64,000 bases of DNA from Bacteroidales bacterium (GTDB lineage: Bacteria > Bacteroidota > Bacteroidia > Bacteroidales > WRLA01), in contig CAXXFD010000004.1 of assembly GCA_963662905.2 (NCBI GenBank), forward strand, positions 194,172 to 258,171. Direction: 5' to 3'. The notes under the pieces were generated by a model, which did not search any database, was not told where the DNA came from, and was given only the letters and a program-made list of their open reading frames with translations. A program made the translations under genes and the position numbers. Below, piece by piece: positions 1,455 to 42,981 of the stretch (positions within the stretch are counted from its first letter, which is position 1; every line of letters begins with the position of its first letter).

Positions 1455-1471
1455 GACAAAATTATTTTGTT

Positions 1472-2620: not shown

Positions 2621-2833
2621 AAATTTTGGGGTTAATGCTACATTCAATGCAAAAACAATGTTTTGCACAATAAAAATACTGTGGGATTATAAATAGCTGA
2701 TCCGGAAATCGATGGATGGGCTGTTTTAGATTATCAACTTACGTTTTGGATTGATCTACCGGAAGTCAATCCGCTTGACTGCCTGAAAAATTCATTTGAA
2801 GCTATAGGAACCAGATAACGAAAACTATTCTGA

Positions 2834-7664: not shown

Positions 7665-7753
7665 ATTTTATTTGTCCAGGACTACCAAAATCCGGACTTG
7701 CTTTTAGCAAGCTTTCAGGTCTGGTTATAAAGTATTTATAGCCAAAATCAGGC

Positions 7754-10150: not shown

Positions 10151-10384
10151 TGTTCTGCTTTTTCTTATGCAAAGAACGACAGAAAACAGGTTTTGTTCAA
10201 CAATTTTTTTAAAAAATTAAACAAAACTCGTTTAATCTCTCATAGATTCCCCAGCCACTTTGTGGCCGCTTTAAGAAAGTGATTAAAATGATATCAGGAA
10301 AAATACAACAATTTTGAAGTATAACTCAAAAATAACATAATAATTTTGAGTTACACCTCAGAAATATTATAAGAATTTTGAGTT

Positions 10385-10558
10385 AGGCCCTTCGGCTTAC
10401 TTCGGCTACGCTCAGCACAGGCCGCTCAGGGGCCTTCAATTGTAGTTAAAATTAAAATCTAAGGCCCTCGAGCGGAGCCGAGAGGCCGATGTTAAAACAA
10501 AATCAAAGGCCCTTCGAACTGCCTGTAGGGAGCGGAGTCGAACTAAGTCGAGAGGCCG
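10385..10558. repeat. Three GC-rich hairpin-forming repeat units (10385..10435, 10461..10488, 10506..10558)
   Basis: Each unit starts (a)aggccc and ends gaggccg or ggggcct, so the termini are self-complementary. Units 2 and 3 share ggccct(t)cga...gagcggag(c/t)cga...gagaggccg. The region stands out as GC-rich within AT-rich spacer. Confidence 0.55.
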
Positions 10559-26264: not shown

Positions 26265-27836
26265 TCAGATATTAAGGGTTAACTGTTGTTGTGTATAATA
26301 ATCTTTGCCCCGTATATTGCCGTGCCTGGGAAGGGCTTTTTGTGGCGCATTGTTTTGTTGGCCAGCAGTTTTGTTTGTGAGTATGTTGGATATAAAGCGG
26401 TAAGTAAACACTTCATTGTCAATTGCCATGCGGCAGGCAGATTCAAAAGCAGCCTTATCGCTTGTACGGCAAAGCCTCAGCAGCCCGTCGCAGCTTTTGT
26501 AGAGCTGTTCTGCATAGCGGTCAGTGCGGCCGAACATCAATATAAAGAGCCTGTGCAGATCCTGGCTGAGTTCCATGGCTCTATCAAGATAGTACTGTGG
26601 GCTGCGCGCAAGGTGGTGTTTGTGGGCGGGGCATAAATGTTCCTTACAGGTAGAGTATCCGCCCTGTTTGTAATTGCGCAGGTGCGCCGCTATAAGCTTT
26701 TGCCCCAAATATATATCCACGGTATTGCGGGTATAGATAACCTTGGCCTGTTGGCCGATATGTTGATAAGGCACACTGTAGTAATGCTTGTCACGGCCAA
26801 GGTAAATGTGGTTGTTTTGTGCCACTTTGAGCGAGCAGTAATATTTTTGCTCATAGGGCTGCCGTGGAAGGGGCGCCAGTTTGTTCTTTTCATCTGCAAG
26901 GAAACGCTCCTGGCGGCACCATGGCTTTTGCTGCATACGGGTCTGGTTGTGCTGTTCTACCTTAGTTGCTATTGCGCCGTTTAGCTCATCAAGGCTAAAA
27001 AACACCTGGTTTCTGAGTTTTGCAAAAACGCGCTGGTAGACCAGTTTTACCTGGTTCTCCACAAGGGCTTTGTCTTTGGGCTTATATGCCCTGGCAGGAA
27101 CTACGGTACAGCCATAGTGGTTGGCAAAATCTTCCATACTGCGGTTGATATCGGGCTCATAGCGGTCTGCCTGGTCAACAGATGCTTTGAGGTTGTCGCT
27201 TACCAGTGCCTGTGGTGCTCCGCCCAGATGTTCCAAACAGCGCCTTAGGGCATAAAGGAAGTCCTGGCTGCTTTGGCTGGGCACTGCAATGGCAAAGCCA
27301 TAATCGGAATAGGGCAGGCAGGCTACAAAAACCTGACAGCTGATCAGCTCGCCTGTCTTTGGGTCGGTATAGCAAATGGTCTTGCCTGTAAAGTCCACAA
27401 AAAGCTTCTCAGCGGGTTTGTGGTGCAAAACCATGGATGGCTTTTTAGCCGACAGGTACTGGGAGAGATGGTAGCAGAACTGGGTCTTGCCATATGGCTT
27501 AGCTGTGGTTTCTTTGTATTCCTCCCATAGCAAAAGGCGCGTTACGCCTGTTTTTTGCAATTCCCGGGCATAGTGACCAAGCCTGTCTTTAAGGTACTGG
27601 TAACGTTCATCCTTATAAGCAGGGCTGCCTGCATGGAAGAGCGCTTCCAGTTCAGGGTCTTCGAGCTTTAGCAGCTGAGCGGTGCTCTGGCTAAGCGCAC
27701 CTGCTTTCTTTAAATAGCTCTTTACTGTGTTTTTGCTTATGCCAAGGTTACGGGCAATAGTCCTGTGTTTATTACCCTGCTTGTGCATCCTCAATAATTG
27801 TTTTATCTGACTCATGGGTTTGGGTTTACCGGCCAT
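26265..27836 (-). CDS. istA: IS21-family transposase IstA
   Basis: N-terminal HTH (IARNLGISKNTVKSYL) followed by a DDE core region, 523 aa, in the typical istA-istB arrangement. Confidence 0.9.
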   Translation of the reverse strand: MAGKPKPMSQIKQLLRMHKQGNKHRTIARNLGISKNTVKSYLKKAGALSQSTAQLLKLEDPELEALFHAGSPAYKDERYQYLKDRLGHYARELQKTGVTRLLLWEEYKETTAKPYGKTQFCYHLSQYLSAKKPSMVLHHKPAEKLFVDFTGKTICYTDPKTGELISCQVFVACLPYSDYGFAIAVPSQSSQDFLYALRRCLEHLGGAPQALVSDNLKASVDQADRYEPDINRSMEDFANHYGCTVVPARAYKPKDKALVENQVKLVYQRVFAKLRNQVFFSLDELNGAIATKVEQHNQTRMQQKPWCRQERFLADEKNKLAPLPRQPYEQKYYCSLKVAQNNHIYLGRDKHYYSVPYQHIGQQAKVIYTRNTVDIYLGQKLIAAHLRNYKQGGYSTCKEHLCPAHKHHLARSPQYYLDRAMELSQDLHRLFILMFGRTDRYAEQLYKSCDGLLRLCRTSDKAAFESACRMAIDNEVFTYRFISNILTNKTAGQQNNAPQKALPRHGNIRGKDYYTQQQLTLNI

Positions 27837-28430: not shown

Positions 28431-29547
28431 GTGTTATAATTATTAAGTTAATTAACTAATATTTTATTATCTTTGCCACATGGCAAGAATAGGAAAACCC
28501 ATCCAGATAACAACGGAAGAGAAGGCAGAGCTTCTTTCCATGAGCCGTTCACACAAACTTGAAAAACGTTACGTTGAGCGTGCCGAGATAATTATATTAT
28601 CCGATCAAGGTTTATTGATGAGTGAAATAGTAGAGCAAACAGGGCTTAGTAGACCTGTAGTAAATAAATGGAGACAACGCTTTCGCGAGCAAGGTATTAC
28701 AGGTTTGAAGGATGCTTACCGAAGTGGAAAACCAAAGGTTATCACTGCAGAACAACAGGCTATGGTAATTGAGAAAGCCTGCACAAAGCCAGATGACGGA
28801 TACACTAACTGGTCTCAAGAACGTATCGCCAAAGAAGTAGGGATTAGCCAGTCTAAAGTATTTCAGATTCTTAAACAAGCAGACATAAAGCCACATAAAA
28901 TTGAGTATTGGTGCGGCAAGTCAAAAGACCCAGAGTTTGAAGAAAAAATGACCAACATTGTTGGGCTTTACATGTCGCCACCAGAAAACGCTTTGGTTAT
29001 TTGTGTTGACGAAAAAACTCAAATACAGGCACTCGATAGAACTCAGCCAGAGTTGCCATTACGGCCAGGAAATCCGAAAAGACAAACAGCCACCTACAAA
29101 CGCAACGGAACTGTTTCGTTAATTGCGGCACTTGCAGTGCATACAGGTGAAGTAACAGCCAAAACAATTAAATCAAATAATGCAGAAAACTTCTTAAAGT
29201 TCTTAAAATCACTTGATAGGAAATACCGAAACAAAAAGCTTCACATAATTGCAGACAACCTTTCGGTACATAAACATAAAGACGTTAAGGAGTGGCTGAA
29301 AGGAAAAAGGAAAATCACATTGCACTTCACCCCAACGTATTCTTCTTGGTTGAATCAAGTTGAGATATGGTTCAATATATTAACAAAGGATGTTGTAAAA
29401 GGAGGTGTTTGGAAATCATCAGAACAATTGGCTTCTCAACTTATTGAATACGTGAAAACATACAATGAGACACGTGCTAAGCCCTTTCGATGGACTTATA
29501 CTGGTGATGCATTGAAAATTAGTTAACTTATTAAATAATTAATACAC
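28431..29547 (+). mobile_element. IS630-family insertion sequence (1117 bp), apparently intact
   Basis: Imperfect terminal inverted repeats: gtgttataattatt... and the reverse complement of ...aataattaatacac. TA target duplication at 28429..28430 and 29548..29549. One DDE transposase ORF, with an internal -7 box tatctttg at 28468..28475. Confidence 0.8.
28480..29526 (+). CDS. IS630-family DDE transposase
   Basis: The N-terminus has HTH motifs. The DDE_3-type core reads VICVDEKTQIQAL ... HIIADNLSVHKH ... TPTYSSWLNQVEIWF. Confidence 0.9.
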   Translation: MARIGKPIQITTEEKAELLSMSRSHKLEKRYVERAEIIILSDQGLLMSEIVEQTGLSRPVVNKWRQRFREQGITGLKDAYRSGKPKVITAEQQAMVIEKACTKPDDGYTNWSQERIAKEVGISQSKVFQILKQADIKPHKIEYWCGKSKDPEFEEKMTNIVGLYMSPPENALVICVDEKTQIQALDRTQPELPLRPGNPKRQTATYKRNGTVSLIAALAVHTGEVTAKTIKSNNAENFLKFLKSLDRKYRNKKLHIIADNLSVHKHKDVKEWLKGKRKITLHFTPTYSSWLNQVEIWFNILTKDVVKGGVWKSSEQLASQLIEYVKTYNETRAKPFRWTYTGDALKIS

Positions 29548-29775: not shown

Positions 29776-30219
29776 TCACTTTCGATCTTGTAAGTTTTGA
29801 CTATCACTCAAAATCGGGTTCGTTAAAACGTCTTGAACATAACCTGTAGATTGAAAGGTAATAATCCCCTTATCTGTTTCGATTGTATAATCCCATAATA
29901 TCATCTTCCCATTAGGGGTTGCTCGTTTATTATCCCTTGTAATTTCCAGTATGGATAGGCATATAGAATTATTAAAGTCAATATCTATTTTTAAATTAAG
30001 TACATTATTAAATATTAAATTACATTTTGATACCCAAAATTGGTAACTGCTTTCTTTACTCCTTTCCCATTTAAAAATATAATCAATATCTAATGATAAT
30101 TCAAGATTATCCCATGGAAACTTCATAGAATAAAGACTTGCATCATGCCAACCCATTTCTTTAAAATCAGCATCAGTCCATTTGTTTTTAACTTGTAAGG
30201 TAGTCATACTAATTCCCAT
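29776..30219 (-). CDS. Candidate cognate immunity protein for the Rhs C-terminal toxin
   Basis: A small (143-147 aa) ORF with no signal peptide. It overlaps the Rhs stop by 11 nt, or starts 1 nt after the stop if the ATG at 30207 is used. It is AT-rich like the toxin tip. No known family was recognised. Confidence 0.55.
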   Translation of the reverse strand: MGISMTTLQVKNKWTDADFKEMGWHDASLYSMKFPWDNLELSLDIDYIFKWERSKESSYQFWVSKCNLIFNNVLNLKIDIDFNNSICLSILEITRDNKRATPNGKMILWDYTIETDKGIITFQSTGYVQDVLTNPILSDSQNLQDRK

Positions 30220-33200
30220 TCCTTTTATCCAATACTTTTTTTACAGTTCTAATGTCTTGCTGATTCATTGGTTCAACGGTTTTTCTATCCTTATTCCAAT
30301 GAGTCTGTCCTGTTTCTGGATTTGTATTCTTATTTGAATATTGCTTGTGCGGTGTCTCTACTCCTTTATGTGTTGCTCCATCCAGATCATAATGAACTTT
30401 CTTATTTGGTGTCTCTACTGTTACCGAGTTTTTACCATCATTAAGATTCGTCTTAACATCTAAGGCTTGCTCTTTAATACTTGGGCTTTTTGCTAACTTC
30501 TCACTACCTTCTTTAAGCATTTTCTCACCACCTTCTTTGGCTAACTTCTTACCCCCTTGCTGAATAACGTCATCAACACCAGTAATCACGGGAACACCTG
30601 TAACTTCTTCAACTGTTGTTTCAACAACTTCTATGGCAACATATGTAGCAACAGCTTGAATACCGTAAAGAGCAATAGCAAAAGCCCCTACCATTGCAGT
30701 TCCAACAGCCGCCGCACCAATTGCATTCTTTTTAATATCATGCTTAGTGATATGCCCTTTCTTTTGCGAATCAGCATACAACTGGCCATAAACCCAAGGA
30801 GGATCATCAACAACAGTTCCGTCCGGGTCAATAAACCTGATTGGATTGTTTAAAGTATAATTGTAAGGAGACCAATTAAAATATAAATGCGCCATCGGGT
30901 CAACAACATACCATCTGCCAACTGAAGGATCATAAAACCTCGCCCCATAATCGTACCAGTTTAATCCAAAATCATCCTGCAGTTCCTTGCCGTTGTATTT
31001 ATATTTGTTTTCAGGGCTGGCATCGCTATAACTCAAACCGGCAATATTCATCCCAAATGGATAATAAGCGTCTTTCTGCAAAACCGTTCCGTTTTGGCTG
31101 AGGGTAACACGTGTATTGCCCAGGTGGTCTTTGAGGTAATATTGGTAATCAAATCCTCCGTTTTCCCGTGGCACCAGCCTTCCTTCGGCATGTTGCACAA
31201 ACTGCAGGTTGCCGTCGGAATAAACGAAGCTGCCACAATAATCAGTTGCCGGTCCGGGCATATAGCCTGTGGCGTATGTGGTTTTTTGCAGCTTCCTGCC
31301 CAACGCATCATATGCATAGAAAATATGCTTCATTTCGTCCTGCTCCAAATCAATTTGATCGGGTAAATTTAGGTAATTATAGCTTACGCCCGAAATTTGT
31401 TTGTTTTTGTCCAGTGTCATATTGCCGTTATCGTCATATGCGTATTCACCCTGTTGCAGGAATGAGCCATTGTCCGTAAAGCCGTTGAGCTGTGCTGACT
31501 GGGCTGTTATGTCGTTCACGGCAATAAGCTGGTTACCGGAATAGCTGTAATCCATTTGGTCGATAATGCCATTAGCGGAAGTCTGGGCAAAATCCCCCCG
31601 GCGTTTCAACGAAAGGATATTTCCGTTGCGGTCATAGGTATATGCCGTACTGTATTTGTTGTTTATATTGTATGTGGCTGATTCGATGCGGTTTATATCG
31701 TCATAATAGTACTGATAGGCCGACAGTTCGGGATACATTGCGCTTTTCCAGCGTATGGAAGCAATATTTCCGTTAAACTGAGGTGCAGTAGCATTTGTAT
31801 TGTATTCCAATTGGCAGGCAAAGGCGTCGTTTACTGTCTGATCTGCTTTATTGATGCCCGTGAGCCATCCCCGGATATTATAGGTGTAATCAATATTTTG
31901 CAGGCAACCGCTTGATGAAACATGGAGCTTTTTGATCCGTAAACGGTTCAGGTCATCATACCTGTTGGTATAGAGGTTAACTGTGTCTGCCCCGTTAACA
32001 GAATGCAGGTGGCGTGTTATATTGCCCAGGTGATCGTATTCAAAACGCTCGGCAATTTCAATGGGTGTTGCATTTTGCCCTGCCTGATGGCTTTCTTTGG
32101 CAATCAGTACCTGTCCTGTATAGTTGGTTTTGTTGGAAATAATATCCAATCCTTCCAGGTGGTTGTCCTTTACGGTTTGGATCAGATGTCCGTATTTATT
32201 GTAATAATCAACCTGCAGCATATTGCCGTTCAAAGGCACAGTGCTGTTGTTAGGTATTATTGAAGTGCGTGTCCCGGTCTGGAGCCCTTTTACCTCATTG
32301 GTATTTGGCAAAGCAAAATCCAGGTGGCTGCTTCGGAAGGCATAATCGTTTGTATATGCAGAAAGCTGGAGGAAATCATAATTGTCATAATAATTGATGG
32401 TACCAATAAAATCAGATTGACACAGTGAAGGGTATGCGTTATTGGTATAACCGTAATCAGAATTTGGGTCATAAGATTCGTACGCAGCGGCAGCATCAAT
32501 ATATACCTGCATTTGCTCTGGTGTTTGCGGTGCGGGGAATTGGTGGATACCACTGATAATTTCCCTGTTATGGGCATCGTATTTTTTAAACATCCATTGG
32601 TTTCGAAGCCGCAGTTCACCATCCTGGATCAATACGGGAAGGTCGCGTTCGTTATATAGCATAAAAACTGCCTTTGCCCCGGGCAATTTCTTAAGTGTCA
32701 TGCGGTTTAATTTGTCATAATCATAGTAATAGCAAAGCTGGTCTATATCAGTATTGGTTTCATAAGTACCCAATGTTGTATTGCTTTGGCTGAACAAAGC
32801 ATCAGCTTTTGGTGGCACAACATAGCGGAGCATACCATAATCATCATAAACATAGTAAGTGCTTAGCCATTGCCCGTCATTTTGCATCCTTTTTAGGATA
32901 AGTTCGCCAAATTGATTTTTAAATTCAATGCTTTTATTGCCGTTTTCGTCTTCAGCATATACACCCTGAAGGTTGTTTGGGCTATAAGCCCCTTCATATA
33001 TCAGTTCATCATTAACATTGACTTTATAGTATTTAATATTATCACTGCTTAGGTTGGTCACATAATTAAATTCCTGAACATGGCCTCCCTGAATTTGCCA
33101 ATCGGAACCGGGGGCAGATTGTTCCATTATACGGTTTAAGGGGGATCCGTCATATTCTTTTTCAGCAAAAGGGAACTGGCCGTCCTGTTGGTTTGAGAAT

Positions 33201-33793
33201 GTTGCGTAAAAGCCTTTGGCTTCTGTGGCAGCATCGGTTCTCAGCCCTCCCGGGCCATAATCCGGGTGTTCCTGATTTATGGCATAGGGCAAAAACTCTT
33301 TGCTCATTCTCCCAAATCCGTCGTATTCAATATTCTGTATGATATCAGCTCCTGATGCAGCCCCTTTCACAACTACATTTTGTATTTCACGCCCCAGTCC
33401 GTCATAATAAACGATCTCTTCATGCCAGTCTTTTTCATAATCAATGGCATTATGGACCGGGCTTAGTGTTGTGGCATTGTTTCCAATAGGGGTGTAGTGC
33501 CGTATGTAATTGTAATTAAAATCTCCATCTGTTACTGCCTGCCCCCCGTTATAAGCCAGTACCGGGTCAATAAAAGCATGGAGGTTAGATCCATTTGCCA
33601 GAGCTGTATATCCCGGTGTAAAATGCAAGGATTTCCTGGCTTTTTCTATGGCATTTTCGTATTGTGGCAGCTCCCTGTCATCCCAGCCATCTGGAGGGAT
33701 CTGGGCAAATACAGATGAGTTTCCAATAACTAAAACGGCAATTATAAATAGGGTTATTTGGGATTTCATTTTATGCTTGTTTATCAATTTCAT
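30209..33793 (-). CDS. RHS/YD-repeat protein with RHS-associated core and a variable C-terminal toxin domain; Sec signal peptide
   Basis: Signal peptide (KSQITLFIIAVLVIGNSSVFAQ). A Bacteroidota-type N-terminal region (DFNYNYIRHYTP) recalled as DUF6443-like. Many YD repeats (YYDGLGRE, YDGFGRM, YVYDDYGMLRY, YDKLNRM, YDHLGNI, YDDLNRL, YDRNGNI, YDDNGNM, YDALGRK). Core: NWYDYGARFYDPSVGRWYVVDP...YNYTLNNPIRFIDPDGT. Confidence 0.9.
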   Translation of the reverse strand: MKLINKHKMKSQITLFIIAVLVIGNSSVFAQIPPDGWDDRELPQYENAIEKARKSLHFTPGYTALANGSNLHAFIDPVLAYNGGQAVTDGDFNYNYIRHYTPIGNNATTLSPVHNAIDYEKDWHEEIVYYDGLGREIQNVVVKGAASGADIIQNIEYDGFGRMSKEFLPYAINQEHPDYGPGGLRTDAATEAKGFYATFSNQQDGQFPFAEKEYDGSPLNRIMEQSAPGSDWQIQGGHVQEFNYVTNLSSDNIKYYKVNVNDELIYEGAYSPNNLQGVYAEDENGNKSIEFKNQFGELILKRMQNDGQWLSTYYVYDDYGMLRYVVPPKADALFSQSNTTLGTYETNTDIDQLCYYYDYDKLNRMTLKKLPGAKAVFMLYNERDLPVLIQDGELRLRNQWMFKKYDAHNREIISGIHQFPAPQTPEQMQVYIDAAAAYESYDPNSDYGYTNNAYPSLCQSDFIGTINYYDNYDFLQLSAYTNDYAFRSSHLDFALPNTNEVKGLQTGTRTSIIPNNSTVPLNGNMLQVDYYNKYGHLIQTVKDNHLEGLDIISNKTNYTGQVLIAKESHQAGQNATPIEIAERFEYDHLGNITRHLHSVNGADTVNLYTNRYDDLNRLRIKKLHVSSSGCLQNIDYTYNIRGWLTGINKADQTVNDAFACQLEYNTNATAPQFNGNIASIRWKSAMYPELSAYQYYYDDINRIESATYNINNKYSTAYTYDRNGNILSLKRRGDFAQTSANGIIDQMDYSYSGNQLIAVNDITAQSAQLNGFTDNGSFLQQGEYAYDDNGNMTLDKNKQISGVSYNYLNLPDQIDLEQDEMKHIFYAYDALGRKLQKTTYATGYMPGPATDYCGSFVYSDGNLQFVQHAEGRLVPRENGGFDYQYYLKDHLGNTRVTLSQNGTVLQKDAYYPFGMNIAGLSYSDASPENKYKYNGKELQDDFGLNWYDYGARFYDPSVGRWYVVDPMAHLYFNWSPYNYTLNNPIRFIDPDGTVVDDPPWVYGQLYADSQKKGHITKHDIKKNAIGAAAVGTAMVGAFAIALYGIQAVATYVAIEVVETTVEEVTGVPVITGVDDVIQQGGKKLAKEGGEKMLKEGSEKLAKSPSIKEQALDVKTNLNDGKNSVTVETPNKKVHYDLDGATHKGVETPHKQYSNKNTNPETGQTHWNKDRKTVEPMNQQDIRTVKKVLDKRNGN
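30212..30814 (-). other. Rhs C-terminal polymorphic toxin tip (201 aa after the DPDGT core boundary)
   Basis: Starts VVDDPPWVYG. Contains a ~35-aa hydrophobic stretch (AIGAAAVGTAMVGAFAIALYGIQAVATYVAIEVV), a K/E-rich linker, and a terminal ~75-aa His-rich module (KKVHYDLDGATHKGVETPHKQYSNKNTNPETGQTHWNKDRKTVEP). The DNA turns visibly AT-richer at the boundary. Confidence 0.7.
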
Positions 33794-33795
33794 GG

Positions 33796-36700
33796 TTATT
33801 GATTCTTATAATGATACTCCAGGTGTTTCTGTTTTTTAAGCTCTTCGTCCATAATGCTTTGAAGCCTGCCTGCCATATCGTATGTATAAAAAGAAATACG
33901 GTTTTTGGGGTCAGTGCCGGAGGTGATTCCTATGAGGGGCTTATGTGTATATGTTTGGATCATTGCATTTTTCATGCTTTGTTGTGCACGCAAGGCTGTA
34001 TTGAAGTTTTTCCAAATGCCCTGTTTCATGGTATTATTGGCAATATCATGCATATCGGCAACAAGTTCATGGATGTTGGCATAGCCGGAAGGGATTGACG
34101 CAGCAACAGCAGCACTGAGGGTAGGGTAATCAACGTTGGAGGCCTCAACAACAACACATGTTTGGTTGTATGACCATATTACACTTTTGGTCGGCTCACT
34201 TCGCATTTTGTATTGCAGAACATTGCCCTTATCGTCATAATCATCAAATTCAATATATGGATCAGGTGCAGATCCGGGACCTTTTTTGAAAATATATTTG
34301 CCCAACTGCAATAACCCGTCATCATCCATATTATATTCAATAATATCTGAATACATGCCTTGCCTATTCCTTAGTTTTTCAACTTTGATTGGAATGTTAA
34401 CTCGGTTCTGCGCAAAAAGCTCACTGCGGTATGGTGTATTAACCTGTTCGGGATATAGATATGTTTTCTGTAACCTATTGTCTCCGGTCTCTGTTGTTTC
34501 CTTTTTCAGTAAGAGGTCACTGCGCACCGTATTGGTATAATACTCCTTTGTTGTTGTTGTAACTACAGCTTCTCCATCTTTATAGTCTGTAGTAATTATC
34601 TTTGAAGGCCTGGTTTGTCCGCTATAGATGGGGTAATAGGCTCCAATATGCTGTTGTTTTAATCTTAAAACATAGCTTGTAGATTCCCAAATCAACAATT
34701 TATAAAAAGCGGTTCTAAAACCATAGAATATTTCGGATCGGTAAAAATCATATTCCCGATCTATTGTTTTGATTATATTATTATTTTCGTTGTAGAAAAC
34801 TTCCCTAATTATTGAGCCATTTCTCGGTTCTTCTTTATTCCTATAAGAGGGTGGAGTGACATAATCTCTATAATTAAATGGGGTTATATCAGGATAATTT
34901 ACATAATGAATCTCTTGCTTCCCATTATACTCGGCCAAAAAACGATCTCTAATTGTAACAACATCATACCCAACAATATCTCCAGAACCAAATAGAGATG
35001 AAGTCTTAAGATTATTATTATTGGAAAGCCAACAATTAAAGAAATATCTACCTCCTGTATTCCAATATGAAATAGGAGGATTTGCGCAATTTAAGCGCAG
35101 GATGGAAAAATTATATTCTGCAAATGGTTTCGTTTTTGACAGGTTCTTTCCCCCGGAATACTCAAAGCTCTTTTCTGTATAAGAATTGTATCCGTCTGCA
35201 TAATTTAATATCTGTCTTATCCTAAGACCGTTCCCATGTGTTATGGAGTTTTCAGTATCATTAAAATCCGGGAAATAGCCTTTTTGCGGATAAGTGTTTG
35301 GATATGCATTTAATTCATACTCAAAAAGAGTTCGCCCCCCTGTAGGATAGACAATCTGTCTGAGTATAGACGCTTGGGTGAAACTTAATTTGGCTGAATG
35401 ATTGTTTCCATTGTTTAATGGGACTTCCTCTCTATAGCCTTTAAATCTTGATATATTAGGAATTAAGCTATTATTATTTGTTTCACCATTAAAATAACCC
35501 CAATAATCAACAGCAAATGAATTCTTTTTTGGTAAATTGACATCCCAATAAACAAAAGAATATGCAGGTTTGCCCAACTCTCTAATTGAATCTAGTTTTA
35601 ATCTATGTGTTAAAAATGTTTCTGGCAAATCATCAATTTGCACATCATAAGTGTTTCCCTGACTGATGCCCTCAAAATAGCTATAGAAGAAATCAATGGA
35701 TTTAATTATAGTTCGATTCAAATTTATAATATCGATACTAGAAAGTTTTTTTCCATTTTTATCTAATCGTTCATTATTTTTATTAAAGACAACTGTGCCT
35801 CCGGAAAAATTAATAGAATCAAGATAGGCATCCTGCTGACGTGTAAAAGTCCAAGAATTAAAGAGCCTCCAATGAGTTTCAAGAGATTCTTGATTGTAGT
35901 ATCGCGGGTATGGTGCACATGAGGGATGATCTACACGATTATATTGACTAAATTGAATTGCTGTAATAGGACTTTCCATATAATTATCCAGATATCTGTA
36001 ATGCCATGTTTGTCCTAAAGCTGTAAGATTAAATTTTTCAGGCGTTCTTGAATAGTTGAAATTTATTGACCTTTCATTTGGGGTTATAATTTCTGTTAGG
36101 AGCCACATTCTTGAAGTAACCTGATTAGGGCCAAACGGGGAACAGCTTCCTCCATAGCCTTGAGAGTAGCTTCGCGCGTCACGGATTGTTTCTACGCATT
36201 CCTCAAAATGATATGATACGCCATTATCCAAAGTTATTTTCCATGCAAACGGCATACTGCCGGTCTTGGTAATTTTACAAGTTGTGTTGTTTAATATATG
36301 AATTGTGCTTTCATTTTCAAAATCAATTAGGAATTCAATTGTTTGACCTAAAAATATTGCTTTAAACACATCAGGTTCAGAATCGGTTTTATTAATATAA
36401 TTCGGATAATCATTACAGTCCTGTGAATCAAATAGGCATGGTTTATGATTATTATAATAATTTCCATCCTCAGGAACGTATCCATCAGTAAAATGCCAAT
36501 AAGAATAGTGATCTAAAGAAATTTCATCGTTTGAAGGGGTATAGCCAGTGGCTGGAGCACTATTGGGATAGTCATATGGCCATGGAAACTGTGCGGGTTC
36601 ACTATAATAAGGAGTAGAAGCGTGATAGTCCGGTAGTATTTTTTCCACATTGCCATCTAAATCATCTTTATCGTTGATAATTTGTATTATACTTCCAAAA

Positions 36701-37008
36701 TTTATATCCCATCCAAGTCCAGTCCAGCTTGCTTCGTCCGTAACCTTTATTCCTCCTGAATGATACCGAAGCTCAATAGGCACTTCAATACTTGGATACT
36801 TAATATTATATAAAGGCACAGAAATGTTTGGGACACCTGTGTATGCATCAACAGGTATCTCACCATATTTCAGAAAGCTGTAAGCTTGTGGAGAGACAGG
36901 GGATGTTTTGGGCACATAGTAATCGTCAATGGTTTGAGCAGAGGTAATTCCATTAAGGCCTATACTGATGCAGGTCAGTATGAAGTATTTATATATTATG
37001 TGTTTCAT
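33796..37008 (-). CDS. Large secreted protein with SpvB/TcB-N-terminal-like motif and a terminal YD repeat; function unknown
   Basis: Signal peptide MKHIIYKYFILTCISIGLNGITSAQ. The stretch PVDAYTGVPNISVPLYNIKYPSIEVPIELRYHSGGIKVTDEASWTGLGWDINFGSI follows the pattern TG-x4-S-x-P-L ... L-x-Y-x-SG ... G-x-GW seen at the start of SpvB/TcB proteins. The last 35 aa contain FYTYDMAGRLQSI. The stop lies 2 nt from the Rhs start. Confidence 0.5.
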   Translation of the reverse strand: MKHIIYKYFILTCISIGLNGITSAQTIDDYYVPKTSPVSPQAYSFLKYGEIPVDAYTGVPNISVPLYNIKYPSIEVPIELRYHSGGIKVTDEASWTGLGWDINFGSIIQIINDKDDLDGNVEKILPDYHASTPYYSEPAQFPWPYDYPNSAPATGYTPSNDEISLDHYSYWHFTDGYVPEDGNYYNNHKPCLFDSQDCNDYPNYINKTDSEPDVFKAIFLGQTIEFLIDFENESTIHILNNTTCKITKTGSMPFAWKITLDNGVSYHFEECVETIRDARSYSQGYGGSCSPFGPNQVTSRMWLLTEIITPNERSINFNYSRTPEKFNLTALGQTWHYRYLDNYMESPITAIQFSQYNRVDHPSCAPYPRYYNQESLETHWRLFNSWTFTRQQDAYLDSINFSGGTVVFNKNNERLDKNGKKLSSIDIINLNRTIIKSIDFFYSYFEGISQGNTYDVQIDDLPETFLTHRLKLDSIRELGKPAYSFVYWDVNLPKKNSFAVDYWGYFNGETNNNSLIPNISRFKGYREEVPLNNGNNHSAKLSFTQASILRQIVYPTGGRTLFEYELNAYPNTYPQKGYFPDFNDTENSITHGNGLRIRQILNYADGYNSYTEKSFEYSGGKNLSKTKPFAEYNFSILRLNCANPPISYWNTGGRYFFNCWLSNNNNLKTSSLFGSGDIVGYDVVTIRDRFLAEYNGKQEIHYVNYPDITPFNYRDYVTPPSYRNKEEPRNGSIIREVFYNENNNIIKTIDREYDFYRSEIFYGFRTAFYKLLIWESTSYVLRLKQQHIGAYYPIYSGQTRPSKIITTDYKDGEAVVTTTTKEYYTNTVRSDLLLKKETTETGDNRLQKTYLYPEQVNTPYRSELFAQNRVNIPIKVEKLRNRQGMYSDIIEYNMDDDGLLQLGKYIFKKGPGSAPDPYIEFDDYDDKGNVLQYKMRSEPTKSVIWSYNQTCVVVEASNVDYPTLSAAVAASIPSGYANIHELVADMHDIANNTMKQGIWKNFNTALRAQQSMKNAMIQTYTHKPLIGITSGTDPKNRISFYTYDMAGRLQSIMDEELKKQKHLEYHYKNQ

Positions 37009-37028: not shown

Positions 37029-39083
37029 TTATTTTTTAACAATTTTAATAATATGAGTTTGCTCATCAATATTGATTTTTAAAGTGTACAAACCTGTATT
37101 CAAGTTGGTCAACCTTAGCTGTCTTCTAAAAATAAAGCCGTCTGTAACTGCCTTTTCACTGTAAATTATTTGTCCCAGGGTTGAGTAGATTTCGATAACA
37201 ATGGGCTGCTTATGCTCCGTGTTTTTTGCAACCTCTATATTTAACCAATCCTCAACAGGGTTAGGGTAGGCATTGATACGTAATTCTGTTTTTGAGCGAT
37301 CATGGACATTGATAAGGATTTCATCAGTACTTTCACAATTATTATAATCAGTAGTAAATACTGAGAGTTTATGAATCCCAGGGGTTAAGCTATTTGCCTC
37401 AATGCTTATATTTTTTGTTTCCTCTCCAGAACTCCATATGTATGTTTTAAAACCACCCAGAACTTCAACCTGGGCTATTTCATCCCTATATAGCTCAATA
37501 TCACCACCGAGCTTTGGTTTTCTCAAAGGTTCAACAATAGCCATAACAGTGTCTAGTGCTTCACAACCTCTTGTACTAACAACTTTTATCGTAATCATCT
37601 GAGTTGAATCAGCTATATAGGAATTGCTTCCTTGGACGCCGTTCCATAAATATCGGCTAAAGGAGGAATCAACCTTGATTTTTATAGGTTCACCGCAAAG
37701 TGAATATAGTTCATTTTGAGAAAGAAGGTCTTTATACATACTGCAATCCAAGAGCCTGGAAGCATAATAGTTTTCGCCCGGGGCAAAATCGGACTGATTA
37801 TCGAAAATTCGAATGGAATTGCTGAAATTGCCATTAACAAATATTGTTTGCTCATCATATATCATGGCATGGCGAATGAAATTTGAGTTCGAGTCACCAA
37901 TGGGCTCTATTTGCTCCAAGATCCCTTTTCCGTCCAGCTTGGCCAAAAAGGCATCTGTTGACAGATTTTGAGATTCAATTTGCCAGTCATCAATGTCAAT
38001 TTTCCCTATAAATGAACCTCCGATAATTAATCTATCCCTACCTGGGTCATAGTCCATTGTTTTTGGATAATCATTGGCAATTCCCCCAAAAGAATTTATC
38101 CACTTAAGTCGGTAAGATGAATCAACCCCAGCAATAAACACATCATTCATTCCATTAGAAATTATGGCCTTGCCCCCGAAGCTAATTTCATCCTGAAATG
38201 ATCCAATGGCGATAAAACCGTCTTTAGTGAAAGCAATGTCGACGATTTCGTCGTCGTAATCCCCGCCAAACAGAAAAGCGGAAATATTGTCCGACTGTAT
38301 TTTTGATGGATCTAATTCCAAGACAATTCCGTCTCTCATTCCTTTGCTGCTAAATAATTGATTGTTAACAGTGACCTTATCCTTAAAAGCCCCTCCAAGA
38401 ATAATATTTTGATTAGGAGCTGTTTTAATAAAGTTTAGCTCAAAAAACCTGCTTTCCAGTCCGCAACTGTCAAAAACAAGGCCTGTTTCATCAAGGAAAT
38501 AAATCCGATATAGCTTTTTATTGTTATCATTAGGTTTAAATGACCTAAGCTCCGCTGCAATTACTGTGCTATCTCCCTGGGCAAATGTTCCTTGAACAAA
38601 TGAATATTTCGGATACTCTATGAACCTTTTAAAATTACCATTTTTAGTCAGCATTAGCTCAAAAGACCTTATTGACTTTGAATGCGAAAGCTTTCTTCCG
38701 TTAAATTCAATAGTTCCACGGAAAGAACCATATAATATGATTGTTTCTTCTGACTGATTTACAGTTAAACTATTGATATGACAAAACTTATCACTTAATA
38801 CGTTTTGCGCCCAAAGCTCAATTCCGGAACTGTCTAATTTTTTTATATAAGAAACTAATGAAGACTCCTTAAAAGCAAGGTTTATTTTATTGGTATCAAT
38901 TATTTGTTTAACTCCCGTTAAATAGGTGCATGATGATTTATCAAGGTAAGCGTCCGATATACTTTGAACACCAATTTCTTTTGAATTTAGCATCCACTCA
39001 ACGGATGTACCTTGGGCTGCTGTAAAAGAGATAGGAGCCAATATGCTCAGGGCAAATAAAAAGAGCTGGAATTGACGTGTCAT
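37029..39083 (-). CDS. SBBP-like beta-propeller repeat protein with Ig-like modules and T9SS C-terminal sorting domain
   Basis: Has a signal peptide. Repeats of the type GG..D....I....DG.I.IGSF.....FGG......G..D.FIA resemble SBBP repeats. The C-terminus INAYPNPVEDWLNIEV...GLYTLKINIDEQTHIIKIVKK is a type-A CTD. Confidence 0.65.
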   Translation of the reverse strand: MTRQFQLFLFALSILAPISFTAAQGTSVEWMLNSKEIGVQSISDAYLDKSSCTYLTGVKQIIDTNKINLAFKESSLVSYIKKLDSSGIELWAQNVLSDKFCHINSLTVNQSEETIILYGSFRGTIEFNGRKLSHSKSIRSFELMLTKNGNFKRFIEYPKYSFVQGTFAQGDSTVIAAELRSFKPNDNNKKLYRIYFLDETGLVFDSCGLESRFFELNFIKTAPNQNIILGGAFKDKVTVNNQLFSSKGMRDGIVLELDPSKIQSDNISAFLFGGDYDDEIVDIAFTKDGFIAIGSFQDEISFGGKAIISNGMNDVFIAGVDSSYRLKWINSFGGIANDYPKTMDYDPGRDRLIIGGSFIGKIDIDDWQIESQNLSTDAFLAKLDGKGILEQIEPIGDSNSNFIRHAMIYDEQTIFVNGNFSNSIRIFDNQSDFAPGENYYASRLLDCSMYKDLLSQNELYSLCGEPIKIKVDSSFSRYLWNGVQGSNSYIADSTQMITIKVVSTRGCEALDTVMAIVEPLRKPKLGGDIELYRDEIAQVEVLGGFKTYIWSSGEETKNISIEANSLTPGIHKLSVFTTDYNNCESTDEILINVHDRSKTELRINAYPNPVEDWLNIEVAKNTEHKQPIVIEIYSTLGQIIYSEKAVTDGFIFRRQLRLTNLNTGLYTLKINIDEQTHIIKIVKK

Positions 39084-39095
39084 CTTTTATTTCTT

Positions 39096-40760
39096 TTAGT
39101 TTGCTATTTTTTCAGAGAGCTTGTTCAAGTCTTCCTGCTGCCGGATGATGAGCTTTTGCTGTTCATCAATCTGCTTCTGCTGCTTAATCACATAAAGCGT
39201 CAGCTCTTCAATTTTCTGCAAGAGTTTGGCATCCATTTGCCCTACATTGATGCCTTCTTCGGCAACCTGATCAGCTGAAGGGATATCAGGAAGGTGTTTG
39301 TGTTCCTTTATGTAAGATTCCACTTCATGGAGGGGGCGCAGTTTGTAGTTATCCGCGAATACGAAATCGCTCCATTCGGTTAATAACTTAACCCATAGTT
39401 CAGTGGCCATGATTCCACCGTTGACGTAGAGTTTGGCCGTGTTGGCATCATCAATAAAGGTTTGTCTTTCGCCAGGAGTAGATAGCCCTATACCCACAGC
39501 ATTGTTGCTTTTAACTAGTAGGCCTTCTGAGGCGATAAGGTTACCTTTATGGTCAACAGCGGAAAACCTATTCAAGGTAATGAAATTCGGATCTGCCAAA
39601 TCAGTAACACGCAAATCACCATTCACATGCAGTTGTGTTTCAGGCAACTCAGTTCCGACCCCAATTTTACCTTCTTCATCGGAGATAAAAAGGGCGTAGT
39701 TGAGTTCTACTTCTCCCGGGGCTGCTTCTAAACTTCTAATTGGTTTCCAAAAATTCAAACCATCGGATTCATATTTAATACCCCAACGGCCATTTGGGTT
39801 TTCCGGATCACCATAATTATCAAATAATAGGGAACTATTAGGCGTGTTTATAAGTATTTTTCCGTTTACATGAAGATCTTGTAAAGGTCTAATAGCGTTT
39901 ATTCCTACATTTCCGGTTTGGTTCTGGATAAACAAATGTACCCTGCGGTCAACAATATTTAATGTAGGGTCATCACCAACACCACCAGAGCCCCCTCCTG
40001 TTGTTCCGTAAACAGGTTCAAAAAACCTTAAGCCTTTGTTTAATTGGTAATCTACGCCCCAACTTACTTCTCCGTCTTGGGGTGTAGCGTTAAAAAATAC
40101 AGCTTTGTTTTCCCCGGTTACACAAATATTCCCGGCTACATCCAGTTTGAAATGCGGTATTTTATTTCCAATTCCCACAAAGCCAATATCTGTCGGCACA
40201 TCATTCCCTTTAACATAAATAGCTGGCGTTATGCTCCCCGCAGCAAAAGCAAGACTGTAGGGCTCAAATGTTTCAGTACCAAAACCTAAGGCGATAGAAT
40301 GATGGGCTGAAGAACCTGTCACAAGGTTTGCTCCCAATGCTGCACTATATTCACCTCTTAATTGTAAGTCTTTGCCCAGTCCCAATGTCCACAAATTGAA
40401 GGATGTATTATTGAATCCCAACAACATAGTGTTTTCAGTGTTATCGGCAGATTCATTATATGAACCAAAAAGAAAAGACTGTGGAGTACGTGTGCCGGCA
40501 ATATTGTTATTTCCTAATAAAACCGAATTGCCCGAATTGCTTGGTATATAGTTATTATATCCAATACCAATACTGTGACTTCCATTAACCTCACTATTAA
40601 CGCCAAGGCCAAAAGCACTGAGTCCGGTAACTGTGGCGCCATTAAATGCTGTATTTGAGCTGCTAGATGTGCCGCAATTAAAGCATTGAGATTTAGCCAA
40701 TAAATGACAGAGAATAAAGCTTATGGCTAAGCAAGTTATTAAAAGCTGTTTGTTTTTCAT
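39096..40760 (-). CDS. Secreted tail-fibre-like / adhesin-head-like protein with C-terminal coiled coil
   Basis: Has a signal peptide. The N-terminal third has short G/N/S-rich repeats like trimeric-adhesin heads (SIGIGYNN, VLLGNNNIAG, MLLGFNN, SAALGANLVTG, SIALGFG). The motif (K/H/Y)(L/V)xV(A/N)G recurs (FKLDVAGNI, LHVNGKI, LHVNGDL, LYVNGGI). The C-terminus reads WSDFVFADNYKLRPLHEVESYIKEHKHLPDIPSA...LLQKIEELTLYVIKQQKQIDEQQKLI. Confidence 0.55.
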   Translation of the reverse strand: MKNKQLLITCLAISFILCHLLAKSQCFNCGTSSSSNTAFNGATVTGLSAFGLGVNSEVNGSHSIGIGYNNYIPSNSGNSVLLGNNNIAGTRTPQSFLFGSYNESADNTENTMLLGFNNTSFNLWTLGLGKDLQLRGEYSAALGANLVTGSSAHHSIALGFGTETFEPYSLAFAAGSITPAIYVKGNDVPTDIGFVGIGNKIPHFKLDVAGNICVTGENKAVFFNATPQDGEVSWGVDYQLNKGLRFFEPVYGTTGGGSGGVGDDPTLNIVDRRVHLFIQNQTGNVGINAIRPLQDLHVNGKILINTPNSSLLFDNYGDPENPNGRWGIKYESDGLNFWKPIRSLEAAPGEVELNYALFISDEEGKIGVGTELPETQLHVNGDLRVTDLADPNFITLNRFSAVDHKGNLIASEGLLVKSNNAVGIGLSTPGERQTFIDDANTAKLYVNGGIMATELWVKLLTEWSDFVFADNYKLRPLHEVESYIKEHKHLPDIPSADQVAEEGINVGQMDAKLLQKIEELTLYVIKQQKQIDEQQKLIIRQQEDLNKLSEKIAN

Positions 40761-40956: not shown

Positions 40957-42981
40957 ATGATGAAAAAGAATATACTCATCGTATTTTGGCTGTTTTCAGC
41001 CTTTTTTTGGGATTCGTATGCCCAAACCGTATTCTTAGAAGACTTTAGTAAAGGGGATTCCTCGCTTGAAGGCTGGGAAGTTGGCCCCAACGATTATCCT
41101 GTATTTTCGGAATATCGTATTGCAAATACAGCCTTATGCAAACGCGAAGCACCGGAGTTTAATCTGTATTATTGTGGCAAAGAAACACATAAAGGCAACT
41201 CTGGTGAGTATTATGGTGATGGAATTGATTTGATCTCCCCGCAATTTGATTTTTCGCAATATGATGAGCTCAACCTATCTGTTGACCTATATTATTTGCC
41301 AGATCTGGTCTGGATAGTTTATCAGCTCTATTTTATTGTTGAAACGCGTAATAATTTTACAGAGGATTGGGTTGAACTTTTTCACTATAAGTATGAGTAT
41401 GGGACTAAGGATTTAGAACCACCATTTAACCTAATAATGGCTCTTGATTCATCAATGTTCAAAAAAGAAGGATTTCAAATTAAATTAAGGCTTTCTAGTA
41501 ATGTGGGCTGGATGTCATACAGTAATAACTGGTTTAATATTGACAATATCCATATTTATCAACCTGATCAGCATGACCTTGGTTTTTTTACGGATTATCC
41601 GGATGTCCATATGGAGAAGGATTCCGTATTTATACCCAGGGTATTTGTCAGGAACAACGGGCTAATGAATACCGAAGGACAGGTAAACTGTCAGATAAAA
41701 GAGTTTCAGACTGGCGACTTAATTTATAATGAAACTGTTGGCACAACTGAGCCTGGATCACTGGATACTGTAAGCCTTCATTTCCCTCCTTTTGTTGTTC
41801 CTTACAGCAACAATCTCTATGATGTTGAATATCAGCTTATGTGTACGGGTGATGTCAATATCGATGATAATAATGCTTCATTTAAAATTGATTCCTATAC
41901 AAGTTTGTATCATAATATATTAAGTATCAATGTTTTGTATTCAACAGAGTTTTTGGAATCCGGATATAATATGATGGTACCGTATATCATTGACTTGCCT
42001 GATGTATTGGAGGAATATGATGATATAAAGGAAGCTATCCCCAGATGTCAAGTGGCTAACTATATATATGATGATGTACCGGATTCACTAGATACACAAA
42101 CTGCAATGGCATTTTTACATAGTATTGATGCGGACTTTGAAGCGGGAGGACCTTCTCCGAACTTAATTCCTCATATTCCTGCATGGATTTTCCTTCCTGG
42201 CAACAATATATATCCTGTACACTCTTGTTTTACGTATCCTAATGATCCAAGCACAGACTATATCATAATAATTGATGAGTTGGCACAGCACGCCAGGAGT
42301 GCATTTTCATTGGATATTTTTGGTACCCATTCCGGCCTGGATTATAGTATCATGGTCGAACTCACCCCCAAAGCCCCAATCGTAAATGAATATTTAAAAT
42401 TACATACGGTAATCACACGCTCCCATGTGCCGTCTAATGCCAATCCGGAAATACCAGATCGGTACCGCGTTGAATTCTTCGACGACGTAGTCCAAATGGC
42501 CCTGCCCGATACCAACGGCATTGCTTTTTCCATGGACGGATCAGAGACCAGCGCCAAGCAATGGGAAATGTCATTCAGTTTAAAGGATTTCTGGGATCCG
42601 GAGCAGGTGAAGGTTGTAACTTATGTTCAGGATACATTTACCTACGACATCCTGCAGTGCCGTGCTGTGCCCCTGCAAAACCTTTGGGGCGTAGGAATGG
42701 AAGAAGAAGCGCAAATGCCTGCAGAAAGCGTCCTTATCAGTCCCAATCCGGCAAAAGACATGCTTTATGCGCAGCTCATGCTGGAAATGCCGGCCAATGT
42801 GGATTTCCGCCTTTTTGATATCAATGGCCGCGATCTGGGCATCCTGAAAAGAAGCTTCCTCGGTGCAGGCAACCACAAAGTGCAGATCAGTGTACCGAAG
42901 CACATAAAAACAGGCATCTACATCCTGCAAACAGAAACAGAGCGTGAGCTTTATTCGCAGAAACTGAATATTGTGCGGTAA
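40957..42981 (+). CDS. T9SS-secreted protein (choice-of-anchor-J-like N-terminus, Omp28-related-like region, type-A CTD)
   Basis: Signal peptide MMKKNILIVFWLFSAFFWDSYAQ. Then FLEDFSKGDSSLEGWEV. A later motif VKVVTYVQDTFTYDILQCRAV is recalled from Omp28-related proteins. The C-terminus SPNPAKDMLYAQL...GIYILQTETERELYSQKLNIVR is CTD-like. Confidence 0.55.
   Translation: MMKKNILIVFWLFSAFFWDSYAQTVFLEDFSKGDSSLEGWEVGPNDYPVFSEYRIANTALCKREAPEFNLYYCGKETHKGNSGEYYGDGIDLISPQFDFSQYDELNLSVDLYYLPDLVWIVYQLYFIVETRNNFTEDWVELFHYKYEYGTKDLEPPFNLIMALDSSMFKKEGFQIKLRLSSNVGWMSYSNNWFNIDNIHIYQPDQHDLGFFTDYPDVHMEKDSVFIPRVFVRNNGLMNTEGQVNCQIKEFQTGDLIYNETVGTTEPGSLDTVSLHFPPFVVPYSNNLYDVEYQLMCTGDVNIDDNNASFKIDSYTSLYHNILSINVLYSTEFLESGYNMMVPYIIDLPDVLEEYDDIKEAIPRCQVANYIYDDVPDSLDTQTAMAFLHSIDADFEAGGPSPNLIPHIPAWIFLPGNNIYPVHSCFTYPNDPSTDYIIIIDELAQHARSAFSLDIFGTHSGLDYSIMVELTPKAPIVNEYLKLHTVITRSHVPSNANPEIPDRYRVEFFDDVVQMALPDTNGIAFSMDGSETSAKQWEMSFSLKDFWDPEQVKVVTYVQDTFTYDILQCRAVPLQNLWGVGMEEEAQMPAESVLISPNPAKDMLYAQLMLEMPANVDFRLFDINGRDLGILKRSFLGAGNHKVQISVPKHIKTGIYILQTETERELYSQKLNIVR

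Follow-up and report, generated by a model that had tools for sequence, protein, structure and literature searches.

A predicted propeller-less TcB-like protein and its RHS partner in Bacteroidota: probable halves of a two-gene toxin cocoon

Introduction

Cocoons built from RHS/YD repeats are known in three settings: as the B and C halves that dock on TcA in Tc toxins, as single-chain effectors of type VI secretion systems (T6SS), and as eukaryotic teneurins. In the Tc holotoxin structures, a beta-propeller of TcB, about 300 residues in length, closes the cocoon and docks TcB on TcA. To our knowledge, Tc subunits carry no signal peptides and are released by lysis-type systems. Here we describe a 1070-residue TcB-like protein (hereafter the target) and the RHS protein encoded directly after it (hereafter the partner) from a 64-kb stretch of Bacteroidales DNA (contig CAXXFD010000004.1 of assembly GCA_963662905.2), which is referred to as the window and whose own numbering is used throughout. 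It is probable that the target and the partner are the two halves of one B/C-type RHS cocoon around the toxin of the partner. A possible split RHS shell had been proposed in the initial annotation of the window; this idea gained computational support, with the model of the target fitting TcB and that of the partner fitting TcC, from which we infer that the two would assemble.

Rhs proteins with SpvB-type N-termini have been noted in Bacteroidota before. Zhang et al. (2012; PMC3482391) define a 'TcdB/TcaC' export pathway class by a signal peptide, SpvB and an integrin-like propeller, with Bacteroidetes among its hosts. Brief remarks by Steele and Moran (2021; PMC8125069) concern Apibacter Rhs proteins with SpvB/TcdB N-termini, located beside genes with type IX secretion system (T9SS) type-A sorting domains. 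The literature searched contained no mention of DUF6443 and no description of a two-gene TcB-like/RHS family.

Results

Predicted structure of the target

The target gene is a real open reading frame (ORF), called at 33796..37008 on the minus strand with an ATG start and 1070 codons. Its stop codon (33796–33798) is separated by 2 nt from the start of the RHS gene at 33793, and both its extent and this spacing agree with the initial annotation. The following parts were recognized.

36934..37008, minus strand: predicted signal peptide, residues 1–24, with cleavage predicted between ...TSA and Q25; helix 2–21 in the model
36019..36915, minus strand: divergent SpvB/TcB N-terminal domain, residues ~32–330, supported by the family profile, Pfam and Foldseek
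36679..36861, minus strand: conserved opening motif, residues 50–110, inside the SpvB/TcB-like N-terminal domain
33823..33963, minus strand: C-terminal YD repeats detectable in sequence, residues ~1016–1062, the last hairpins before the partner gene; strands at 1016–1062 in the model

AlphaFold2, given an alignment of 63 sequences, produced a model of the target with a mean pLDDT of 82.8 and a pTM of 0.86. In this model, residues ~215–1062 form long RHS-type beta-hairpins with strands of 10–17 residues, interrupted by a helical insert at residues 961–1008. Short four-stranded propeller blades are absent from every segment of the model. Correspondingly, FG-GAP, VCBS and TcdB_toxin_midN/midC were matched at E≤1 in none of 28 full-length homologues, nor in the target itself (Pfam).

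A Foldseek search of the model against the PDB gave 46 matches at E≤1e-3, all of them Rhs, Tc, teneurin or SGS1 shells or the SpvB N-terminal domain. The anticipated relationship to these shells was thus found down to an E-value of ~8e-17, with TcB chains giving the best global fit. The strongest E-value was obtained with the S. bongori Rhs core 8qjc (7.9e-17), for which the query-based TM-score (TMq) is 0.11. The TcB chains of YenB (4igl_A, 5kis_A, 9c4k_P) and the TcdB2-TccC3 fusions (4o9x, 6sup) were matched with E-values of ~1e-16 to 1e-14 and a TMq of 0.35–0.39, and the best global superpositions among PDB chains are those on YenB and TcdB2 (TMq 0.38). Closed T6SS Rhs cocoons and teneurins gave a TMq of 0.07–0.16, and the root-mean-square deviation (rmsd) of the predicted model from all T6SS Rhs structures is 29–37 Å despite significant local similarity. 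The SpvB N-terminal domain (6p0x) was matched with an E-value of 4.5e-5 and a match-based TM-score (TMt) of 0.43, and TcC chains with E-values of ~1e-6 to 5e-5 and a TMq of 0.12–0.16. As modelled, the target is an open RHS/YD half-shell, not a closed single-chain cocoon.

The initial annotation had described a lone YD repeat at the C-terminus. This holds for sequence detection: the YD repeat FYTYDMAGRLQSI is found at residue 1040, Pfam RHS_repeat (PF05593) aligns to residues 1029–1051 with 14.2 bits (E 0.061), which is under the 22-bit gathering threshold, and the protein ends 19 residues past its last YD repeat. At E≤1, 26 of 28 homologues match RHS_repeat at this C-terminal position (best 5e-11), some of them above the threshold. 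In the predicted structure the repeat is not alone, since RHS-type sheet extends over residues ~215–1062. Because this sheet occupies almost the whole model, the 'lone YD repeat' is the last repeat recognizable in the sequence, and a description of the target as SpvB plus a single YD repeat does not hold. Neither a Rhs-associated core (TIGR03696) nor a toxin domain was found in the target with Pfam or NCBIfam.

On these predictions, the target is most likely a distant, propeller-less Bacteroidota counterpart of TcB that consists of a Sec signal peptide, an SpvB/TcB-like N-terminal domain and an open half-shell. Since both the propeller and TcA are absent, it does not strictly belong to the TcB family. 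The lack of a propeller is compatible with the absence of TcA from the window.

N-terminal homology to SpvB and TcB

A family profile was built from the aligned first 350 residues of 61 homologues from genome loci. Against all PDB sequences, this N-terminal profile matched three sequences only, all of them YenB (TcB), with an E-value of 2.9e-5; the alignment spans profile positions 206–282 and lies in the N-terminal domain of YenB, with the motif at 50–110 outside it. Pfam SpvB (PF03534) was matched by 22 of the 61 homologues at E≤1 (best 7.6e-5), and no other Pfam family was matched by more than two of the 61 N-termini. A full-length homologue (P0103) scored 26 bits against SpvB, for which the curated cut-off is 22, over residues 54–295 and profile positions 2–213 of 287; a second homologue scored 17.9 bits. 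From the P0103 score, the 22 SpvB matches and the YenB-only profile match it is concluded, at the level of sequence, that the resemblance of the target N-terminus to SpvB is homology of the family rather than a chance pattern.

The signal depends on the query. In the PDB search, the SpvB link surfaced with the N-terminal profile and not with a full-length family profile, which gave weak C-terminal YD matches only (Rhs core and teneurin-like YD regions); a phmmer search of the PDB with P0103 gave noise. Single-sequence searches with the target found nothing in the PDB, NCBIfam or PHROGs, and in Pfam the sub-threshold RHS_repeat only.

The opening motif (PVDAYTG from residue 52 and GLGWDINFGSI from residue 97) is the most conserved part of the family, with G58, Y82, G86, G97 and W100 invariant in alignments of 63 and of 100 homologues. 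The SpvB/TcB-like opening that had been read at about residues 50–110 is present, and the resemblance of the N-terminus as a whole is backed by the family profile, the SpvB matches and P0103. Q25 is invariant as well (alignments of 28 and 63 sequences).

Size and variation of the family

The target gave 197 matches in a word-indexed database, and at least 574 tblastn-confirmed matches to its family were obtained among 185,579 species-representative genomes; the 80 loci kept from this genome scan are nearly all titled Bacteroidota. An exhaustive profile search returned 36,072 representatives at E≤1e-3; at the stricter limit of E≤1e-30 there are at least 16,747 clusters (50% identity), with lengths mostly of 1000–1300 residues.

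Many homologues contain extra C-terminal modules past the last YD repeat, either one to three DUF5977 domains, a PKD domain or some 900 residues (P0059, P0011, P0057, P0251; L026, 880..7032). These could be binding modules on the exterior of the shell. The closest database relative (P0001, 96% identity) has 818 residues and begins at profile position 228, so that neither the signal peptide nor the SpvB-like opening is part of it; this start is either miscalled or that of a truncated allele in a related strain.

Linkage to RHS genes

The partner sequence was compared by tblastn with 81 loci that hold target homologues. In all 51 loci with at least 6 kb of downstream sequence, an RHS gene lies beside the target homologue: a DUF6443-RHS gene is found downstream on the same strand in 44, upstream on the same strand in four and on the opposite strand in one, and an RHS core with no detectable DUF6443 match in two. 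The 15 loci with no RHS match all have at most 4.3 kb of downstream sequence, mostly as they come from contig ends. At the ORF level, the distance from the target stop to the RHS start is mostly between -76 and +64 nt. In the reverse direction, a target homologue is adjacent in four of four look-ups from RHS homologues on long contigs. One locus (L085) has the same order as the window, with a fibre gene, a T9SS sorting-domain gene, the TcB-like gene, the RHS gene and a small ORF. The linkage is essentially obligate in both directions and translationally coupled, and the expectation that adjacency to RHS genes would be conserved was borne out.

Single-polypeptide fusions in related genomes had also been suggested, and one in-frame case was found in a metagenome-assembled genome (locus L016). 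There, a single ORF of 1764 codons joins the last YD repeat of the target homologue to DUF6443, running from ...FDYDALGRLIGVKDN...YLSTFKYNF into the DUF6443 opening ...IAYAYSDGLGRAVQ... with neither a stop nor a signal peptide in between. The locus contains ORFs at 139..5433 and 5885..11488; the fusion ORF ends part-way in the RHS repeats, and the remaining RHS repeats, core and toxin are in the second ORF, past ~2.3 kb of unrelated sequence. This arrangement may reflect a shifted split point or an assembly artefact. The target profile matches none of the 120 best RHS homologues. A 2050-residue representative is as long as the L026 ORF, in which the C-terminal extension is not RHS.

The partner RHS protein

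The partner has 1194 residues and contains the following elements, with RHS repeats between DUF6443 and the Rhs core.

33059..33442, minus strand: DUF6443, residues 118–245 (Pfam, E 6.5e-36)
30818..31066, minus strand: Rhs core TIGR03696 (E 1.5e-16), with IDPDG at residues 988–992
30722..30823, minus strand: hydrophobic stretch, residues 1024–1057, Gly/Ala-rich, with a Kyte-Doolittle mean of 2.0 over 19 residues
30281..30406, minus strand: Ntox24, residues 1130–1171 (Pfam, E 2.9e-8)

Core residues R952, D965, P984 and G992 are invariant. The hydrophobic stretch before Ntox24 could, from its composition, be a membrane-insertion or entry element. More than 1,500 clusters of the partner RHS family were found.

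The AlphaFold2 model of the partner, made with 55 homologues, has a pLDDT of 77.8 and a pTM of 0.75, with the toxin region (residues 1000–1194) disordered. Its top structural match is mosquito SGS1 (8fjp; TMq 0.52, rmsd 6.5 Å). By TMt it fits best on the TcC chains 4igl_B, 5kis_B and 6l7i_G (0.68, 0.66 and 0.60; rmsd ~8–9 Å). It superposes on these and on the TcdB2-TccC3 fusion with a TMq of 0.48 (rmsd ~8 Å). The TM-scores to closed single-chain Rhs cocoons are 0.13–0.35 (rmsd 12–33 Å) and those to TcB chains 0.15–0.19. Judged by the two models, the target resembles the B half and the partner the C half, whereas neither has the look of a self-closing cocoon.

The mature target (~1045 residues) and the partner shell (~875 residues, 118–992) together amount to about 1900 shell residues. 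YenB and the N-terminal domain (NTD) of YenC2 have ~1457 and 666 modelled residues. The combined shell is comparable to YenB plus YenC2-NTD minus the ~300-residue propeller.

Organization of the locus

The target is the third gene of a tight run of five genes.

39096..40760, minus strand: fibre-like protein, 554 residues, secreted; first gene of the run, 12 nt from the next
37029..39083, minus strand: repeat protein with T9SS type-A sorting domain, 684 residues, secreted; 20 nt upstream of the target
33796..37008, minus strand: target, TcB-like, 1070 residues; third gene of the run, 2 nt from the RHS gene
30209..33793, minus strand: partner, a polymorphic toxin of 1194 residues with DUF6443, RHS repeats, Rhs core and Ntox24 (Pfam, NCBIfam)
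29776..30219, minus strand: candidate immunity protein, 147 residues; 11-nt overlap with the RHS stop

All four large proteins have signal-peptide-like starts that end in A or S before a Q, as read from their sequences; the target's ends ...SA before Q and the partner's ...FA before Q. This agrees with the earlier observation that both halves have signal peptides, for which the invariant Q25 also speaks. The 147-residue protein matched no family in Pfam, NCBIfam or PHROGs, and its candidacy as an immunity factor comes from its position; related loci also have a small ORF after the RHS gene.

No TcA-sized or TcA-like ORF is present in the 64-kb window, in which the sole ORF above 1200 residues encodes TamB; the reported absence of TcA was thus confirmed for this stretch. 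The statement that the target gene is among the most AT-rich parts of the window proved accurate, the 2-kb bin at 34001–36000 having the lowest GC fraction in the window (0.351). The 28–42 kb stretch as a whole has a lower GC content than the rest. Two transposase genes are located just past the 147-residue ORF, one of the rve/Mu type (26265..27836, minus strand) and one DDE_3/IS630-like (28480..29526, plus strand). The transposases and the low GC content would suit a toxin island that is mobile or was acquired recently.

A divergent gene immediately upstream of the operon (40957..42981, plus strand) encodes a 674-residue protein with a T9SS C-terminal sorting domain. Further away, a TamB-like protein (1612 residues) and an Omp85/POTRA protein (753 residues) are encoded by adjacent genes with an 11-nt overlap (51039..58128, minus strand). 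They look like a usual pair of the TAM type for outer-membrane assembly, with no connection to the target.

Accessory genes around the pair

Same-strand ORFs were clustered over the 81 related loci and the module of the window, 82 loci in total. The 684-residue protein (Por_Secre_tail, E 1.1e-11) has homologues in 18 of these, with genes that lie either ahead of the TcB-like gene or in between it and the RHS gene; members of this family contain SBBP beta-propeller repeats (4.6e-10 in the homologue of L002) and Por_Secre_tail. An unannotated family of ~493 residues occurs in 15 loci and consists of a signal peptide, a helical region and a strand-rich C-terminal part with an aromatic end. It has no Pfam match even at E≤5, and its sequence suggests a coiled-coil/barrel-like protein. 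In nine of the 81 loci (L019, L006, L008, L018, L035, L060, L066, L068 and L071) and in the RHS-side look-up L082, a set resembling the type II secretion system (T2SS) is found, with a secretin, a prepilin peptidase, GspE (4.6e-132), a pseudopilin and GspF. In Polaribacter glomeratus (L019, 350..9841), this set runs on the same strand directly into the TcB-like gene. The window contains no T2SS-like genes.

The T9SS-sorted propeller protein, the ~493-residue family and the T2SS cluster co-occur in none of the 82 loci. This exclusivity suggests that the three are alternatives for one job, most plausibly outer-membrane export or surface display, and may in part be a lineage effect. The 554-residue fibre-like protein has weak matches to YadA heads and phage tail fibres, and its conserved C-terminal part ends in a predicted coiled coil. 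Its homologues are found in 15 of 82 loci (L014 and L035 among them), often in tandem arrays, with ten copies in L073, and co-occur with each of the three accessory types.

Discussion

In the arrangement that we consider probable, the target and the DUF6443-RHS-Rhs core-Ntox24 protein, whose downstream gene is translationally coupled, would be exported together to the periplasm by Sec, and the latter protein would take the role of TcC. The last YD hairpins of the target would continue into the DUF6443/RHS sheet of the partner, so that the heterodimer forms one large closed cocoon. The aspartyl protease of the Rhs core would cut after IDPDG (988–992) and free a toxin of ~200 residues into the cavity, comprising the hydrophobic stretch (1024–1057) and Ntox24, and the 147-residue downstream protein would protect the producer. 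Without TcA, export and presentation would probably depend on lineage-specific accessory genes, here the T9SS-sorted beta-propeller and the fibre-like protein, and elsewhere the T2SS-like cluster or the coiled-coil/barrel-like protein. This export scheme is more tentative than the cocoon itself, and we regard it as somewhat doubtful.

A more specific version, which we think quite unlikely, would have the TcB propeller supplied in trans. The T9SS-sorted SBBP-propeller protein would then act as the gate of the cocoon and, by T9SS anchoring, hold it at the cell surface, the fibre would make contact, and other lineages would swap in the T2SS-like machine or the coiled-coil/barrel protein, the pair being the core of a Bacteroidota-specific, TcA-independent delivery system. 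If true, this version would account for the lack of co-occurrence among the three accessory types.

Several points weigh against a split B/C-type cocoon. TM-scores of 0.38 to TcB are modest, repeat proteins may be aligned in a shifted register by Foldseek, and models of monomers, as AlphaFold2 produced here, are unable to reveal closure of a cocoon or binding of two proteins. The target alone has no SpvB match in Pfam, so that the SpvB link comes from family profiles and structure. Gene order is variable, with the RHS gene upstream in 4 of 51 loci (7 of all 81) and on the opposite strand in one. A single fusion was seen, in a metagenome-assembled genome in which the RHS gene itself is interrupted. 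There is no RHS-core fusion among the 150 best representatives of the target family, and a query directed at the junction added no further case, returning DUF6443 fragments only, the best of which (P0370) is unaligned on the YD side. Without propeller and TcA, closure of the TcB end and toxin entry into the target cell would need some other means, and by our own estimate a secretin channel may be too narrow for the assembled cocoon of ~240 kDa.

Under a competing explanation, the RHS protein would form a complete cocoon alone, with DUF6443 as its N-terminal plug like that of T6SS Rhs effectors, and the target would be a separate accessory of shared ancestry with TcB that has no part in the toxin chamber, such as a surface adhesin, a receptor-binding module or an export adaptor. 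The ~875 shell residues of the partner are near the ~1040 of self-contained T6SS Rhs cores, the partner has its own signal peptide, and the TcB-like gene may lie upstream, downstream or on the other strand; the C-terminal DUF5977 or PKD domains of some homologues resemble binding modules. The partner model, however, fits closed cocoons poorly and TcC half-shells well (TMt 0.60–0.68), the target model matches the complementary TcB half, in L016 both are fused end to end with no signal peptide in between, and linkage is essentially obligate both ways. A self-sufficient partner is thus unlikely, although we give it more weight than any other competing explanation.

Very improbable, and rejected here, is a true Tc toxin directed against eukaryotes with TcA encoded elsewhere in the genome, much as Yersinia entomophaga has orphan TcC loci. 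There is precedent for TcC loci located far away that continue to rely on the main complex (PMC11067744), and both proteins have TcB- or TcC-like predicted folds. Against this stand the absence of the beta-propeller from 28 of 28 full-length homologues and from the model, the lack of a TcA-like ORF in the window, and the Sec signal peptides read in both sequences; the small downstream ORF, placed like an immunity gene, agrees with interbacterial polymorphic toxins (Zhang et al., PMC3482391). The probability is close to negligible that the target gene is a decayed relic of an RHS/TcB gene or of an RHS duplication, carried as a functionless passenger of the toxin cassette, and this explanation was rejected too. 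The target has no Pfam match, it lies in a low-GC region near two transposase genes, and a 96% identical database entry has just 818 residues; yet its 1070 codons are intact, the family, in which matches are full-length and ~1000–1300 residues long, numbers at least 16,747 clusters (50% identity, E≤1e-30), many residues are invariant over 63–100 homologues, the fold is predicted with confidence, and related loci keep the tight coupling to the RHS start codon.

If the split cocoon is real, it would add a fourth arrangement to the three known settings, namely a two-gene, Sec-exported B/C-type cocoon without propeller or TcA. The TcB-like/RHS pair is extremely common in Bacteroidota and, because it is so abundant, probably makes up a large share of the polymorphic toxins in environmental and host-associated members of this phylum. 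It raises the questions of how a cocoon is closed without a propeller, how it crosses the outer membrane (by a T9SS-linked, a T2SS-linked or another route), and how a toxin enters without an injector. It also offers a function for thousands of proteins labelled 'hypothetical', 'RHS repeat' or 'DUF5977'.

Relationship to described systems

The teneurins, the bacterial teneurin-like protein 9ifo and mosquito SGS1 (8fjp) share YD shells with the target; they are single-chain eukaryotic or teneurin-like receptors, in contrast to the two-gene bacterial toxin module described here. The T6SS Rhs effectors (RhsA, 7q97; Tre23-Rhs, 7pq5; Tse5, 8cp6; S. bongori Rhs, 8qjb-d; Tse15, 8uxt) have the same YD-repeat beta-cocoon architecture, and the locus follows the same interbacterial polymorphic-toxin logic. 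They differ in being self-closing single chains with N-terminal plug or clade domains and linkage to PAAR/VgrG, whereas the target has neither Rhs core nor toxin and superposes on them poorly (TMq 0.07–0.16). The N-terminal domain of Salmonella SpvB (6p0x; PF03534) is homologous to that of the target. SpvB continues into an ADP-ribosyltransferase, and the target into an RHS shell instead.

With the Apibacter Rhs proteins (PMC8125069) and the class of Zhang et al. (PMC3482391), the target shares its occurrence in Bacteroidota, the SpvB-type Rhs character and the predicted role in interbacterial polymorphic toxins. The Apibacter loci, known from brief genomic remarks, also have adjacent genes for proteins with T9SS C-terminal sorting domains. 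The class of Zhang et al. is defined by SpvB together with an integrin-like propeller, which the target family lacks. A separate TcB-like gene paired with a DUF6443-RHS gene is not described in the parts of either paper that deal with these proteins.

The closest relatives are the subunits of Tc toxins. The TcB proteins (YenB, 4igl_A, 5kis_A and 9c4k_P; TcdB2, 4o9x) share with the target the SpvB-type N-terminal domain and the open RHS/YD half-shell, and, like TcB genes, the target gene lies directly upstream of a TcC-like RHS-core-toxin gene. The target is ~400 residues shorter, lacks the FG-GAP/VCBS/TcdB_mid propeller, has a Sec signal peptide and no TcA in the window, and is only 7–9% identical to TcB in structural alignments; it comes from Bacteroidota, whereas Tc toxins were first characterised in enterobacterial insect pathogens. 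The partner shares RHS repeats, an Rhs core with the DPxG motif and a variable C-terminal toxin with TcC (YenC2, 4igl_B; RHS2, 5kis_B; TccC2, 6l7i_G). Unlike TcC, it has a signal peptide and an N-terminal DUF6443, and its toxin is an Ntox24 domain with a hydrophobic leader; a small ORF comes next, where an immunity gene would be expected. Since its shell is ~200 residues longer than the TcC NTD, the point at which the cocoon is split between the two genes appears to be shifted relative to Tc toxins.

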